From Candidatus Parcubacteria bacterium (GTDB lineage: Bacteria; Patescibacteriota; Minisyncoccia; JAHIHE01; JAGLIN01), in the NCBI GenBank assembly GCA_023132875.1, contig JAGLXN010000007.1, positions 1,262 to 65,261 on the forward strand: a stretch of 64,000 nt of DNA. Direction: 5' to 3'. Both the position numbers and the translations under genes were made by a program. Shown piece by piece: positions 12,650 through 17,533 of this stretch (position 1 is the stretch's first letter; each line of letters starts with the position of its first letter). A model generated the notes under the pieces. It searched no databases, was not told where the DNA came from, and worked only from the letters and a program-made list of their open reading frames with translations.

Positions 12650-12797
12650 TCATATTAACATACTAACATTCTAACATATTAACATAATGAAACATCAAAA
12701 ATCATTCAATGTGGAACTACTGGTGTAAAAATCTTGTTAGAATGTTAAAATGTTAGTATGTTAGTATGATTTATAATTAATTAACTTAAGTAAAAAT

Positions 12798-13031
12798 ATG
12801 GTATTAGAAAAAGATTCAGTCCAGCTTCTTGCCGCAGCGTTAGCTATTGGAGTTGGCTCTATCGGACCAGCAATCGCTATCGGAATGTTGGGAGGAAAAG
12901 CTATGGAAGCTATGGGAAGAAATCCTGAAGCGTCAGGAAAAATTCAGAGCGCGATGATCTTGGCAATCGCTTTTGCGGAAGCAATTGCGATTTACGCATT
13001 GGTCGTTGCCTTGATTATTAAATTCGTTTAA
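12798..13031 (+). CDS. atpE: F0F1 ATP synthase subunit c
   Basis: 77-aa hairpin proteolipid with GxGxGxG ([12 protein letters not shown]) and the carboxylate helix [12 protein letters not shown]. Confidence 0.9.
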
Positions 13032-13190
13032 TAATCATTCAGTCAAAAGAGAATTAATTCTCTTTTGAAGTGTGTTTATTAAATTATTAGCATTAGAGCT
13101 CACATGTTTGTTCGCTATTATTTCCGCGTATACGGAAATAACAAAGATTACTTTTGACTTTGTAACTTTATAAACTTTTAACTTACTTCT

Positions 13191-13685
13191 ATGTCAGAAA
13201 TATTTTCAAAATTAGGATTAGATTATAAACTAATCATCGCTCAAGCAGTTAATTTTGTCTTGCTTCTTATAATCTTACAACGGCTCGCCTATAAGCCGGT
13301 TTTGAAAATGCTCAATGACAGAACTGAAAAAATTGATAAAAGCCTTAAACAAGCAAAAAAGATTGAAGAAAAGTTGAAAAATACTGAAGAAATTAAATTA
13401 GCTGAAATTAAAAAAGCAAAAGAAGAACATCAGAAAATTATAAAAGAAGCGCAAGAAATCGCGGAAAGAAAATCACAAGAAACAATTGAAAAAACCAGAG
13501 TAAAAACGCAGGAAATCGTAGAAAATGCAAAAATAGAAATAACAGCCGGAAAAGAAAAGTCAGTCAAAGAAGCAAGAAAAGAAATCGCAGATATTTCTAT
13601 TCAAATCGCTAAAAAAATCATTGGAGATAATCTAAATGAAAAAGAGCAGAAAGAAATAGCGAATGATATTTTGAGAAAGATATAA
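13191..13685 (+). CDS. atpF: F0F1 ATP synthase subunit b
   Basis: N-terminal TM helix plus a long charged coiled coil, sitting between atpE and atpH. Confidence 0.8.
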   Translation: MSEIFSKLGLDYKLIIAQAVNFVLLLIILQRLAYKPVLKMLNDRTEKIDKSLKQAKKIEEKLKNTEEIKLAEIKKAKEEHQKIIKEAQEIAERKSQETIEKTRVKTQEIVENAKIEITAGKEKSVKEARKEIADISIQIAKKIIGDNLNEKEQKEIANDILRKI

Positions 13686-13785
13686 TTGAATTGTTACATT
13701 GTCAAATTGTCAAATTGTCATCGCATCTATAAATCTTTTATTGCCTAACAATTTAGCAATATAACAATTTAACAATGTAGTTTAT

Positions 13786-14172
13786 ATGAAAATAACCCCA
13801 AAACAATACGCTATAAGCCTGTATGAAACAACAAAAAATGTTGATGGGTTTGAGATTGAAAAAAGAATAAAAAACTTTGTTGATATTTTGAAAAAAAATA
13901 ACGATTTGTCGCTAGTAGACAAAATAGTAGATGAATATAATAAACATCACAGAAATCAAAGAAATATTTCCAGAATTGAAATCACCAGTAGTAATAAATT
14001 AAATCCAGAAATTTTAAATAAGATCATTCAGAAATTCAAAAAACAAATTGAAATTGAAGAAAAGATTGATAAGTCTTTAATAGGAGGAATGGTTATAAAA
14101 ATAGATAATAGCCTCTTAATTGATGGAAGTGTTAAAAGGAAATTGGAAGATTTGAAGAAGAATTTGATGTAA
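13786..14172 (+). CDS. atpH: F0F1 ATP synthase subunit delta (OSCP), short form
   Basis: 128 aa in the operon position between b and alpha. Weak OSCP-like features only. Confidence 0.6.
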   Translation: MKITPKQYAISLYETTKNVDGFEIEKRIKNFVDILKKNNDLSLVDKIVDEYNKHHRNQRNISRIEITSSNKLNPEILNKIIQKFKKQIEIEEKIDKSLIGGMVIKIDNSLLIDGSVKRKLEDLKKNLM

Positions 14173-14291
14173 AGTTTTGATTAGTGAATTTTTGAATGCT
14201 ATTACATTGTTGCATTGTTAAATTGCTAAATTGTTATGCGTGGCATAGCAATACAGCAATTTAACAATTTAACAATTTAACAATTTAAATT

Positions 14292-15791
14292 ATGAACAGC
14301 CACATTATAGAAACTTTAAAACAACAAATAGCGCAGACTAAATTAGAGACTCAAGTTGAAAAAATCGGTAAAGTAGTAAAAATTGCCGACGGAGTCGCGG
14401 CTTTAAACGGCCTGACTGATGTTATGAGCGGCGAGCTGCTTGAATTTCCAAATGAAATTTTTGGCGTTGCTTTAAATCTGGAAGAAGACAGCATAGGAGC
14501 CATGATTCTTGGCAATTACCTCAAAATCAAAGAAGGAGATACTGTAAAAAGCACGGGGAGAATCCTTGAAGTTCCTGTTGGACAGCAAATGGTTGGAAGA
14601 GTTGTTAATGCTTTAGGCCAGGCAATAGACGGGAAAGAAGAAATTGAAACTGATCAATTCTATCCTGTAGAAAAAATTGCCCCGGGAGTCATCACAAGAA
14701 AATCAGTTGACGCCCCGCTTCAAACAGGGATTAAGGCGATTGACTCAATGATTCCAATCGGAAGAGGACAAAGAGAATTAATAATTGGAGACAGGCAAAC
14801 AGGAAAAACTGCCATTGCTATTGATGCAATTATCAACCAGAAAGGAAAAGATGTTATATGCATATATGTAGCTATCGGACAAAAAGAATCTAAAGTCGCG
14901 AAAATTGTTGCCAAGCTTGAGGAAAGCGGAGCAATGGAACATACAATTGTGGTTCTTGCCGGAGCCTCCGATCCAGCTTCTATGTCATACATAGCTCCTT
15001 ACACTGGATGCACGATAGGCGAGTATTTTATGGATCAAGGAAAAGACGCAATGATCGTATATGACGATTTAAGCAAGCATGCATGGGCATATAGGCAAAT
15101 TTCTCTTATTTTAAAAAGGCCGCCGGGAAGAGAAGCTTATCCTGGAGATATTTTCTATCTGCATTCCAGGCTTCTTGAAAGAGCGGCAAAACGCGATGAG
15201 AAATATGGCGGAGGGTCATTAACCGCACTGCCTATTATTGAAACTCAGGCCGGAGATGTTAGCGCCTACATTCCAACTAATGTTATTTCAATCACAGACG
15301 GGCAAATCTTTCTTGAAACAGACTTATTTTATCAAGGAATAAGGCCTGCTGTTAATCCAGGTATTTCAGTTTCGCGCGTTGGATCTTCGGCTCAAACAAA
15401 AGCAATGAAGAAAGTTGCGGGAAAACTGCGGCTTGAACTTGCGCAATTCAGAGAATTAGCCGCCTTTGCTCAGTTTTCAAGCGATCTTGACAAAGAAACA
15501 AAACAAAGGATTGAGCGAGGAAAAAGACTTACCGAAGTCTTGAAACAAGATCAATATGTTCCCATGGAAACAGAAGAACAGGTTGTTATTATTTTCGCTA
15601 CAATTAACGGATTTTTGGATAATGTTGAAATTGAAAAAGTAAAGAATTTCGAAAAAGAACTTCTTGAACGCTTGAGAGAGAAAAATAAAGATATTCTTGA
15701 TAAAATTGCCGAAGAAAAAGATATTTCGGAAGAAACGGATAAAAAATTAAAGGAAATTATTGAAGAGTTTAAGAAAAGATTCTCAGCATGA
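14292..15791 (+). CDS. atpA: F0F1 ATP synthase subunit alpha
   Basis: P-loop [15 protein letters not shown] and overall alpha-subunit similarity. Confidence 0.95.
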
Positions 15792-16037
15792 TAATACTGT
15801 CTTTATAAAAAATGAATTAAATCATTCTATTGCTTTATTGTTGTATTGTTAAATTGTCAACTCTAATCAATTTTAATCTTAGCTAAAATAAAAAACTTCT
15901 CACGGAAGAACGGAATAGTCATGTTTTAAAAGAACTGCAAAAACTACCCAAAAAAAAATCAACTAGCTCATAAAGTTTACCAACGATAAATTGACAATGT
16001 AACAATAGAGCAATAGAGCAATTTAACAATAGAATTT

Positions 16038-16955
16038 ATGCAGTCAACACAACAAATTAGAAGACAAATCCAGTCAACAAAAAACACCTCGCAAATAACA
16101 AAAGCGATGGAAATGGTTGCTGCTTCAAAAATGAAAAAAAGTCAGGAGGCGGCTTTATTAGCTAGGCCTTACGCGGAAGCTGCTTTAAGTTTATTGGAAA
16201 ATGTCAGCGAATCAGTTGAACCGCGAAAACATATTTTATTGGAAAATAGAGAAAAGAAAAATGTCTGTCTTTTTGTTGTTACTTCCGATAAAGGATTGTG
16301 CGGCGGGTTGAATAGCGGTGTTATTAAAAAGGCTTTGCAAATAATCAGAAAAAATGAAAGCGAGGGCAGAAAAATTAGTATTGTCGCTATTGGAAAAAAG
16401 GCGGAAAACTATTTTAAGAGAACAAAAAACGATGTTATCGCAGTTTTTAACGGCATCGGTGATTCAGTGGAATTGCGTGAAACGCTTCCTATTTCAAAAT
16501 TACTGATTAACGATTTTAGAGATAAAAAATTTGATAAAGTAATTGCAGTTTACACAAACTTTATTTCTACTTTAAAACAAGATTCTAGAGCTAAAACTAT
16601 TTTACCAGTTACCAGAAGAAGTTTGGAAGAAACAATAGAAGAAATAGATGATTTAGCCATTAAAAATGGTGAAAACGGTAACGAAAATAATGGCATGGAA
16701 TATAAATTTGAACCATCACCTAGTGAAGTTTTATGCAAACTGCTTCCTAATCTGATTGAAATACAGTCTTATCACATTATTCTTGAATCAAACGCTTCAG
16801 AACATAGCGCCAGAATGGTTGCGATGAAAAGCGCGACTGACAGCGCATTGGAAATGCTTGATGATTTGAATTTATTATATAATTATACAAGACAGCAAAA
16901 AATTACTCAAGAAATAAGTGAAATTTCAGCAGGAGTGGCGGCGCAGGAGAATTAG
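16038..16955 (+). CDS. atpG: F0F1 ATP synthase subunit gamma
   Basis: 305 aa with the conserved gamma N-terminus (IRRQIQSTKNTSQITKAMEMVAASKMKK) and C-terminal helix. Confidence 0.9.
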   Translation: MQSTQQIRRQIQSTKNTSQITKAMEMVAASKMKKSQEAALLARPYAEAALSLLENVSESVEPRKHILLENREKKNVCLFVVTSDKGLCGGLNSGVIKKALQIIRKNESEGRKISIVAIGKKAENYFKRTKNDVIAVFNGIGDSVELRETLPISKLLINDFRDKKFDKVIAVYTNFISTLKQDSRAKTILPVTRRSLEETIEEIDDLAIKNGENGNENNGMEYKFEPSPSEVLCKLLPNLIEIQSYHIILESNASEHSARMVAMKSATDSALEMLDDLNLLYNYTRQQKITQEISEISAGVAAQEN

Positions 16956-17111
16956 TTAAAAGTTTATAAAGTTATAAAGTTCATAAAGTTGGTGAATTAA
17001 TAACTTTTTACTTTATAAACTTTATAACTTTAGATTAAATACGCACATTGAAAATTTAGAGATTGAGTTTTGGAAAAATACAAAAAATGATTCAAAAAAA
17101 TGGAGGATTGA

Positions 17112-17360
17112 TTGAAAATGGAACATGACATAATAATACTAATAATATTACCGATAACACTAACGCCACTAGATAATATTAGTATTAAAAAAATAGAAAT
17201 AACAGAAAAAGAAATAGAGTCTTTGAAATTCAAATACGGCCCCTATTCTTTTTACATTAACTTAGGAACATACATCGTTTATGGAATTAAATCAGGAGAA
17301 ATAAAAGAAATGGGTAAACTTATCGTTTCGGAAGACGGCAATTTAGAAATAGAAGAATAA
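17112..17360 (+). CDS. hypothetical small protein inserted between atpG and atpD
   Basis: 82-aa ORF with a hydrophobic N-terminus and no recognisable family. Coding status is uncertain. Confidence 0.3.
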   Translation: MKMEHDIIILIILPITLTPLDNISIKKIEITEKEIESLKFKYGPYSFYINLGTYIVYGIKSGEIKEMGKLIVSEDGNLEIEE

Positions 17361-17411
17361 AGTATTCTATTTCTTATTTTTCCAAACCCCAATTTTTGAA
17401 AAATATAAATT

Positions 17412-17479
17412 CTGGAGTTCAGGTTTTAACCTGTAAATGTCATCCTGAGCTTGTCGAAGGCTTACACTCTTAAAGAGTG
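17412..17479. repeat. hairpin element in the atpG-atpD spacer carrying a MITE-terminus-like motif
   Basis: Perfect 10-bp inverted repeat ctggagttca/tgaactccag encloses aaatgtcatcctgagcttgtcgaagg and an inner cactctt/aagagtg hairpin. Confidence 0.7.
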
Positions 17480-17533
17480 AACTCCAGAAATATTGTTAAA
17501 ATGTTTAAATGTTAATATGTTAAAATAAATATT

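Follow-up and report, generated by a model that had tools for sequence, protein, structure and literature searches.

Paired 7-9-bp repeat arrays between the genes of a Paceibacteria genome, tentatively read as amplified REP/BIME-like palindromic elements

For 64,000 nucleotides from a Candidatus Parcubacteria bacterium (GenBank assembly GCA_023132875.1, contig JAGLXN010000007.1, positions 1,262 to 65,261 of the forward strand; this whole stretch is called the window), we followed up a prediction, made from the letters alone, that 7-9-bp tandem arrays arranged as inverted pairs fill most intergenic spacers and replace Shine-Dalgarno (SD) sequences. The arrays are real, fall into a few families, are conserved and probably have a function. 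With a probability of about 40%, we read them as a few amplified families of palindromic intergenic repeats of the REP/BIME kind, which probably form intercistronic mRNA hairpins and whose start-proximal arm doubles as a leader. The window matches a section of an 831-kb scaffold (ENA ERZ23498665, ZHAN22-2_SAMN18200500 scaffold_1) at 100% identity, and the genome is small and of the candidate phyla radiation (CPR) type, with about 33% G+C and 0.83 Mb. Genomes of the CPR, or Patescibacteria, are tiny, with few regulators known, and the signals that govern gene expression in this group have hardly been studied; here one repeat architecture makes up a tenth of the window's intergenic DNA, between essential genes (atp, ftsA, ftsZ).

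Tandem Repeats Finder returned period-8 arrays of about four copies at all coordinates quoted in the original prediction. With a threshold of 16 matches in 20, our period scan found 23 period-8 arrays in the window, 21 of them intergenic, against 0.6 in block shuffles, and a stricter threshold gave 15 against 0, so the comparison with chance that had been proposed as a check came out in favour of the arrays. The two "coding" arrays both lie within one doubtful GTG open reading frame (ORF). Period-7 arrays numbered 8 against 1.4 in block shuffles, and array numbers for periods 5, 6 and 9-12 were at chance level in the same scan. Arrays cover 10.8% of the intergenic bases versus 0.7% of the coding bases, and about two thirds of the spacers of at least 40 nt hold one or more arrays or an array-built inverted repeat; that they fill most spacers is thus true of spacer number and overstated in bases. 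Inverted pairs are present in about 20-25 of the array-holding spacers, with about 10 single arms in addition, which places the predicted "more than 25 spacers" at the upper edge. The pairing itself was confirmed, with arms of 23-49 nt, complementarity of 75-93% and loops of 2-144 nt. Arm length is narrowly distributed (median 38 nt, interquartile range 34-42.5, one outlier of 120 nt). As had been described, the second arm adjoins the start codon, ending 2-15 nt 5' of the ATG in about 10 cases. Where the window has the 13.8-copy (AATTGTTG) array (6342-6451), the ENA assembly of the same genome shows only N (L081, 3493-3591), which leaves the copy number of this array uncertain.

Phasing of the units on their conserved cores defined the families. 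Class 1 (18 arms, 69 units) has the unit CAAT-W-T-R-R, a 6-bp core ARCAAT with two free positions, and class 2 (10 arms, 35 units) the unit ATGTTA-R-W, a 6-bp core ATGTTA with two free positions. The minor families are AAAGTTTAT, GAATNNN/ATTCTAA, ACGTTAC, ATTCGTG, GAATTTAG and a TTAGT-based "class 3". Units are 8 bp long in the main families and 7 or 9 bp in others. The unit had been said to differ from locus to locus, and instead there are few families, two of which supply most arms; the supposed period-6 (TAACAT)n array between atpB and atpE has a true period of 8, TAACATNN. Richness in CAA/AAC was found in class-1 start-proximal arms only, class-2 arms being G/U/A-rich. Arms of the same class at different loci are 85-97% identical over their full length; the class-2 arm 5' of atpD is 92-97% identical to the window copies at 6609 and 26045 (97% for 17494-17526 against 26045-26077). 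At the free positions, identity within pairs was 0.64 versus 0.60 between loci in class 1 (p = 0.25) and 0.60 versus 0.65 in class 2 (p = 0.81). The complementarity of a pair therefore reflects shared family cores rather than locus-specific co-variation, and the predicted locus-specific pairing was not borne out. Class-1 arms near starts read CAAT 19 times and ATTG once, and those near stops ATTG 18 times and CAAT once, because the palindromic element has a fixed polarity; arm orientation relative to the gene is uninformative on gene direction and was dropped as directional evidence.

To follow the arrays among relatives, the spacers of 13 related Paceibacteria atp operons were compared, namely the window and 12 others whose AtpG is 74-93% identical to its own. 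These relatives were found by exact-protein look-ups of AtpG, are labelled Candidatus Pacebacteria or Patescibacteria, and come from assemblies drawn independently from ENA, NCBI, JGI and Logan; L083, L085, L087 and similar labels denote such related loci. The nearest AtpA in the species-level genome set is only 70% identical and belongs to metagenome-assembled genomes (MAGs) of Candidatus Moranbacteria, and among the matches listed in a metagenome scan with AtpA none was closer than 72%. By Pfam labels the operon order is atpB, E, F, H, A, G, a small ORF, D, C, and the gene names given earlier (smc, ftsZ, ftsA, hisS, pth, the Na/Pi cotransporter and the pheA-like genes) were upheld.

In array-poor relatives the same atp genes carry 5-26-nt spacers without arrays: 5-26 nt at atpF-atpH, 24-25 nt at atpH-atpA (L091, L092), 9 nt at atpA-atpG (L173, L174) and 5-12 nt at atpD-atpC (L179, L089). 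The atpF-atpH spacer measures 100 nt in the window versus 5 nt in L085 and L087, and it corresponds to the L085 spacer (TAA-TTTAT-ATG) with the addition of a 95-nt block that carries the array arms. From such filled and empty sites we infer that the direction of change was insertion or expansion into spacers; the arms touch stop and start codons because this occurred within very short spacers. The density of period-7/8 arrays, 4.8 per 10 kb in the window versus 0.5-1.0 in L091, L092 and L173, differs about tenfold among relatives. According to a rough neighbour-joining tree (midpoint rooted, without support values), the full atpH-atpA pair is widespread.

The arms also behave as separable modules. 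At atpH-atpA, three genomes (L087, L178 and L179) have the start-proximal arm without its partner, and in L087 and L178 the spacer, of 33-38 nt, is that array alone. The stop-proximal class-1 array 3' of atpD occurs in six genomes and has no nearby partner in L085. In L083 and L087 the atpA-atpG spacer exceeds 1 kb, yet the start-proximal arm still adjoins atpG. The arm before atpG is of class 1 in the window, L083, L085 and L087 and of class 2 in L089, L090, L175, L177 and L091; that before atpD is of class 2 in the window, L085, L177, L179 and L091 and of class 1 in L083, L087, L173 and L178. Such alternation of near-reverse-complement classes before the same gene speaks against a single RNA enhancer that depends on its sequence.

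Between the window genome and L089, the four-fold sites of atpA are 41% identical, near saturation, and 43 of the 46 nt directly 5' of the atpA ATG are identical. Across atpH-spacer-atpA, the spacer is 83-97% identical versus 67-83% in the coding flanks, so the array there is more conserved than the adjoining coding DNA. In an alignment of five genomes the start-proximal arm at atpA, CAATACAGCAATTTAACAATTTAACAATTTAACAAT, is invariant, and the stop-proximal arm of the same spacer shows C/T changes that are mostly pair-breaking. Before atpD, the class-2 arm keeps 94-97% identity among the window genome, L177 and L179; stop-proximal arms are 64-82% identical, about the level of unrelated arms of the same family. 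Judged by these alignments, the arrays are not drifting neutrally.

Folding of the co-directional spacers gave z < -2 against shuffles in 22 of 28, with z from -3 to -9 (atpB-atpE -9.1, atpH-atpA -5.8); the predicted intercistronic hairpins thus hold up, provided that the spacers are co-transcribed. In the atp region, TTGACA-17-TAGAAT before atpB is the sole strong promoter match on the plus strand. Between 11200 and 20300 no terminator-like site lies within an array, and the array stems are AU-rich. Since there is one strong promoter and no terminator-like site in the arrays, both arms are probably on one transcript. Intrinsic terminators were rejected as an identity for the arrays, which lack a GC-rich stem with a U-tract. 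Promoters were rejected as well, since the best class-2 match, TTGTTA-17-TATGTT (8/12), falls under the scan threshold and class-1 arms offer no G for a -35 box. Rfam searches with the arrays returned only miRNA-precursor models at 22-31 bits versus gathering scores of 70-180, and over the whole window a single tRNA. For complementarity to the arrays, a 16S rRNA gene was sought in the related loci, and none is present there.

Taken together, the few families with conserved cores, the whole-element copies, the filled and empty sites and the narrow arm length favour amplified repeats, and the single strong promoter before atpB, the stable spacer folds and the conserved start-proximal arm favour mRNA hairpins with a leader. 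The elements would have been amplified in one Paceibacteria lineage of the CPR, each made of two arms of the same family (about 32-45 bp, with about four degenerate units) facing each other across a loop of 2-144 bp. In operons, both arms on one transcript would give long AU-rich stem-loops, which by analogy with REP/BIME elements might act on segmental mRNA stability or processing and on access to the next start. The start-proximal arm would serve as the SD-less leader of the downstream gene and would hence come under purifying selection.

Several observations weigh against this interpretation. Antisense folds are as stable as sense folds (mean difference -0.36 kcal/mol, p = 0.71), arm mismatches are G:T in 20 and A:C in 21 cases in the window (7 versus 11 in other CPR loci), compensatory change affects only 1 of 30 pairs, and alifold gives a covariation term of +1.6 (five sequences only). 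With no G-U excess, strand asymmetry or covariation, we rejected RNA-specific selection on pairing. Arms persist in L083 and L087 at a distance of more than 1 kb, the free positions match no better within pairs than between loci, and the strong asymmetry of the arms was seen at atpH-atpA only, those at atpB-atpE being about equally variable. Co-transcription was predicted from a consensus scan. Furthermore, the loops of class 1 and class 2 are unrelated between loci, and no target-site duplication was found at the two filled-versus-empty junctions examined (atpF-atpH and prmC), both unlike typical miniature inverted-repeat transposable elements (MITEs).

A conserved core, free flanks, a fixed unit number and absent covariation are equally expected of protein-binding sites, and the arrays might accordingly act in DNA, each arm offering about four sites in an 8-bp (or 7-bp) register to an oligomerising DNA-binding protein that occupies both inverted arms, with RNA pairing incidental. 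We regard this as a serious rival, though a less likely one than the mRNA hairpins: the 6-bp core is conserved and its flanking positions are free, the unit number is fixed at about four, the family consensus holds across loci and genomes, the arms are separable, covariation and wobble bias are absent and sense and antisense stability are equal, and two class-2 arms lie just 5' of strong promoter-like sites at 6652 and 26092. However, at least six unit families would demand several proteins in a 0.83-Mb genome, most arrays are intra-operonic rather than at promoters, the start-side arm at atpH-atpA is much better conserved than its partner, "free" positions included, and no candidate protein was identified.

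The model of the original prediction, in which start-proximal arrays are SD-independent enhancers of the S1 or cold-shock-protein (Csp) type, masked by complementary stop-proximal arrays for coupling or regulation, appears rather doubtful. Before SD sequences were counted, several start codons were corrected from orthologues. An SD-like match is missing in 48 of the 53 genes of the window: one gene has an array and an SD, 13 an array without SD, four an SD without array, and 35 neither. Contrary to what had been claimed, arrays are thus not associated with SD-less starts (Fisher p = 1.0), and the statement that genes without arrays have strong SDs fails for 35 of the 39 array-less genes. The arrays are not substitutes for SD sequences. 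Because almost all genes lack an SD, array or not, SD-poor initiation is a property of the whole genome and not of the arrays. For about 14-22 genes, arrays stand at an enhancer-like position (about 10-45 nt upstream of the start). In favour of an enhancer, the last CAAT lies 6-9 nt 5' of the ATG in most class-1 cases, leaders are A/U-rich in general (from -20 to -1, A makes up 47% and G 9%), start-proximal arms show strong conservation, and A/U-rich, ACA-motif and standby-tail enhancers have been published (PMC2176067, PMC3879156, PMC5934652). Besides the failed SD association, the exchange of class 1 and class 2 before the same gene, the absence of arrays at these genes in array-poor relatives, the presence of pairs in a 3' untranslated region before a terminator and in a divergent spacer, and a hairpin selection without wobble or covariation support all count against it. 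The start-proximal arm might still have an S1-type or unstructured-leader role.

It is less probable again that the arrays are undescribed, CPR-wide intercistronic control elements that a tandem-domain nucleic-acid-binding protein reads unit by unit, setting relative gene expression within operons of organisms that largely lack SD-led initiation. Candidate readers would be S1 with its four mRNA-binding OB folds, cold-shock proteins arranged in a string, or a filament of a ribbon-helix-helix protein; if this were true, the heptamer version in Saccharibacteria (L025) would make it testable in culture.

Functionless replication slippage in AT-rich spacers, or an assembly artefact, would suit the varying copy number of orthologous arms, the tenfold density differences among relatives and the appearance of the longest array as a scaffold gap in a second assembly of this genome, but it is largely refuted, since orthologous arrays recur in the independent ENA, NCBI, JGI and Logan assemblies, arm length peaks at about four units with no decay from the detection limit, conservation is far above that of four-fold sites, and other 8-mer arrays hardly ever form inverted pairs (1 of 148 viral loci).

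The distribution was sampled with period-7/8 arrays at 80 atpA loci, one genome per species. Loci labelled CPR held 1.5 arrays per 10 kb and five inverted pairs, Cyanobacteria 2.1 per 10 kb and none (six loci, strict pairs), and all other bacteria 0.15 per 10 kb and none. In a Saccharibacteria MAG (L025), most spacers of the atp region show this architecture built from heptamers, for example (CTAATNN)4, loop, (NNATTAG)4, so that the 7-bp form recurs in a culturable group. Among viral contigs, scanned for phages that carry the arrays, 8-mer arrays matching the same patterns form an inverted pair at the single locus mentioned above; these matches are mostly giant-virus or other AT-rich tandem repeats, uninformative on host signals. 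Our literature search found no description of such arrays in the CPR. Should the arrays be functional, they would give new access to control inside the operons of SD-poor bacteria; should they be selfish, a minimal genome would harbour a repeat family of unusual density and structure. They break assemblies (the N-gap at 6342-6451) and mislead ORF callers.

Among known systems, the REP/BIME elements of E. coli affect segmental mRNA stability or processing. REP sequences are GC-rich imperfect palindromes of about 20-40 nt with a 5' GTAG, and in E. coli and Pseudomonas they form REPIN doublets with a RAYT transposase, whose gene usually has its repeats on either side. The arrays resemble these as short interspersed intergenic repeats in inverted doublets that form long hairpins inside operons. 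They differ in that the arms are AT-rich direct-repeat arrays, not self-complementary, with only arm-to-arm pairs found (class-1 start-proximal arms cannot self-pair because they have almost no G), and in that the 5' GTAG is not present. A separate GC-rich palindrome family, GTAGARACGCAGCAnTGCTGCGTYTCTAC, at gene ends (2459-2486, about 11340-11374 and 22991-23018), fits REP far better. A RAYT-like gene (35113-35682, minus strand, 189 aa) lies between comEC and a metallo-beta-lactamase-fold gene. It reaches 74.3 bits with NCBIfam REP_Tyr_transpos, where the cut-off is 80, and 28 bits with Pfam Y1_Tnp, where it is 23. When its product is aligned with PDB 4er8 (TnpArep; E = 0.014), N appears in place of the second His of the HUH motif. 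The spacers that flank the gene (4 and 34 nt) hold no repeats. The GTAG palindromes look like its cognate REPs; the arrays, without self-palindromy and GTAG, were rejected in that role.

Cyanobacterial STRR are heptamer repeats. With these and with the directly repeated TAACTGA heptamers known from Beggiatoaceae, cyanobacteria and Bacteroidetes, the closest published analogue that we found, the arrays share tandem organisation and intergenic location. The Beggiatoaceae paper (PMC4679880) reports 169 sets in direct orientation and a single indirect repeat. Those repeats have one motif and are almost always direct, whereas here several motifs, mainly of period 8 (23 arrays versus 8 of period 7), occur and inverted pairs are the rule. 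MITEs are similar in their terminal inverted arms, intergenic sites, filled and empty sites and, in part, whole-element copies; in contrast, the arms here are tandem arrays that also occur singly, the loops span 2-144 bp, and internal sequence is shared only in the class-3 element and in the 32.7-kb/49.7-kb copy.

The TMV omega leader has 8-nt ACAAUUAC repeats and the T7 gene 10 epsilon sequence is UUAACUUUA; the class-1 unit ACAAUUUA and the atpF array AACUUUAUA resemble them in sequence. With A/U-rich, ACA-motif and standby-tail enhancers, the arrays share unstructured A/U/C-rich tracts 5' of start codons and differ in having no specific SD-less link, G/U-rich class-2 arms, complementary partners and locations also away from start codons. 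Ribbon-helix-helix proteins bind cooperatively to operator or centromere arrays such as the 8-bp metboxes of MetJ, the omega heptads and the 4+4-bp boxes of ParG. Here the likeness lies in a core with a variable spacer, a 7-8-bp register, direct and inverted orientation and 2-10 units. Such arrays are tied to particular promoters or partition sites, and their cognate protein is known, whereas those of the window are spread over dozens of mostly intra-operonic spacers, in several families and with no protein identified.

Table 1 Arrays and associated features of the window. Positions are those of the window; L numbers denote related loci.
Feature	Position	Strand	Remarks
Near-consensus sigma-70-type promoter TTGACA-17-TAGAAT, 5' of atpB	11822..11850	+	conserved in relatives
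Class-2 stop-proximal arm (TAACATNN)x4, begins at atpB stop codon	12647..12690		
Class-2 start-proximal arm (ATGTTANN)x4, 28 nt 5' of atpE start	12734..12771		
Conventional stem-loop CAAAAGAGA..TCTCTTTTG 3' of atpE, no array	13043..13068	+	stem-loop here in most relatives
(AACTTTATA)-type array 5' of atpF	13151..13185		kept in at least 6 relatives
Class-1 stop-proximal arm (ATTGNNNN)x4 3' of atpF	13686..13723		within 95-nt block absent from L085, L087
Class-1 start-proximal arm (CAATNNNN)x4, 9 nt 5' of atpH start	13746..13779		
Class-1 stop-proximal arm, atpH-atpA spacer	14202..14236		C/T variation among relatives, uncompensated
Class-1 start-proximal arm 5' of atpA	14245..14291		CAATACAGCAATTTAACAATTTAACAATTTAACAAT invariant in 5 genomes
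Class-1 stop-proximal arm 3' of atpA, then CAACTCTAATCAATTTTAATCTTAGCTAAAA	15825..15857		module also 3' of atpD in L085, L177
Class-1 start-proximal arm 5' of atpG	15992..16034		kept in L083, L087 despite >1 kb spacer insertion
(AAAGTTTAT)n / (ATAAACTTT)n pair 3' of atpG, period 8-9	16954..17032		
Single class-2 arm TTGTTAAAATGTTTAAATGTTAATATGTTAAAAT 5' of atpD	17492..17527		near-identical in L085, L177, L179
Single class-1 arm (ATTGCTGT..) immediately 3' of atpD stop	18909..18937		in 6 relatives, variable
Class-2 pair, Na/Pi cotransporter gene-next gene	4606..4713		L085 orthologous pair differs in unit numbers
Class-1 pair, left arm = 13.8-copy (AATTGTTG) array	6339..6498		
Heptamer pair (GAATNNN)n ... 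(ATTCTAA)n, atpC-prmC spacer	19975..20239		inverted copy of both arms at 21793-21967
Class-1 pair between prmC stop and conserved terminator	21177..21266		window genome and L083 only
Class-2 pair just 5' of TTGACG-17-TATAAT promoter-like site	25968..26078		
Class-2 pair, one arm adjoining ftsA start	43561..43735		
Class-1 pair 5' of HIT-family gene (46167-46520), just 3' of hisS stop (46702)	46567..46698		
Class-1 pair with flanks	32723..32873		159-nt copy, 82% identity, opposite strand, at 49689-49847

The class-3 element has four copies in the window (23-154, 25449-25560, 37453-37559 and 63810-63940), palindromes of about 85-130 nt with TTAGT/ACTAA units and 76-88% identity; the copies at the two window ends share about 130 nt including flanks. 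In other genomes, further small palindromic elements and even ORFs fill the spacers that hold arrays here. One such palindromic family, of about 100-130 nt with ends GTCATYC../..GAATGACAG or CTGTCATTGCGAG..CTCGCAATGACAG, is found in the window at about 3360-3400, 9080-9150, 17380-17490, 53330-53470 and 60265-60385, and also in L179 (5143-5295) and others, occupying the atp spacers of relatives where the window has arrays. In several relatives the operon is split by a minus-strand ORF of 135-185 aa without a Pfam match inside the atpA-atpG spacer (L083 9173-9580, L087 9050-9607, L178 7252-7761, L092 9273-9755). Between atpG and atpD of the window lies an 82-aa ORF (17112-17360, plus strand) with a good SD (GGAGG) and no Pfam match, bracketed by the inverted repeat ..GAGTTTTGGAAAAAT.. 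/ ..TTTTTCCAAACCCC.. at 17055-17085 and 17370-17400. A small ORF with similar flanks occupies this place in most relatives (two in L083), L085, L089 and L091 being without it.

Directly after class-2 arms stand two near-consensus promoter-like sites with no protein gene behind them, TTGACA-16-TATAGT at about 6652 and TTGACG-17-TATAAT at about 26092. The former opens a 1.5-kb non-coding stretch that is absent from L085 (region 6335-7841), and the latter is followed by a T-tract terminator near 26270 (region 26085-26290). The stretches behind both sites, for which Rfam gave no match, may be unannotated RNAs or decayed genes.

A canonical SD, AAAGGAGGTGA, precedes the ORF at 22165, which encodes 216 aa without a Pfam match and belongs to the few genes of the window, about five, that are led by an SD; its leader (22120-22164) combines this SD with a single TTAACAATTTAATTAAAAAG stretch, and both are conserved in five genomes. 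Within 2.5 kb there are three ORFs with a prephenate-dehydratase domain, at 56240-56806 (plus), 56883-57770 (minus) and 58170-58736 (plus), two of them short and without an ACT domain. The called start of the middle one is probably wrong, because a tRNA (57746-57819, minus strand) overlaps it. Finally, 21315-21513 is a TTTTCTTTTAGCAAC tract with a 15/30-nt period, whose minus strand would encode a Lys/Ala-rich, histone-H1-like repeat protein, and a similar tract also lies 3' of the prmC terminator in relatives.

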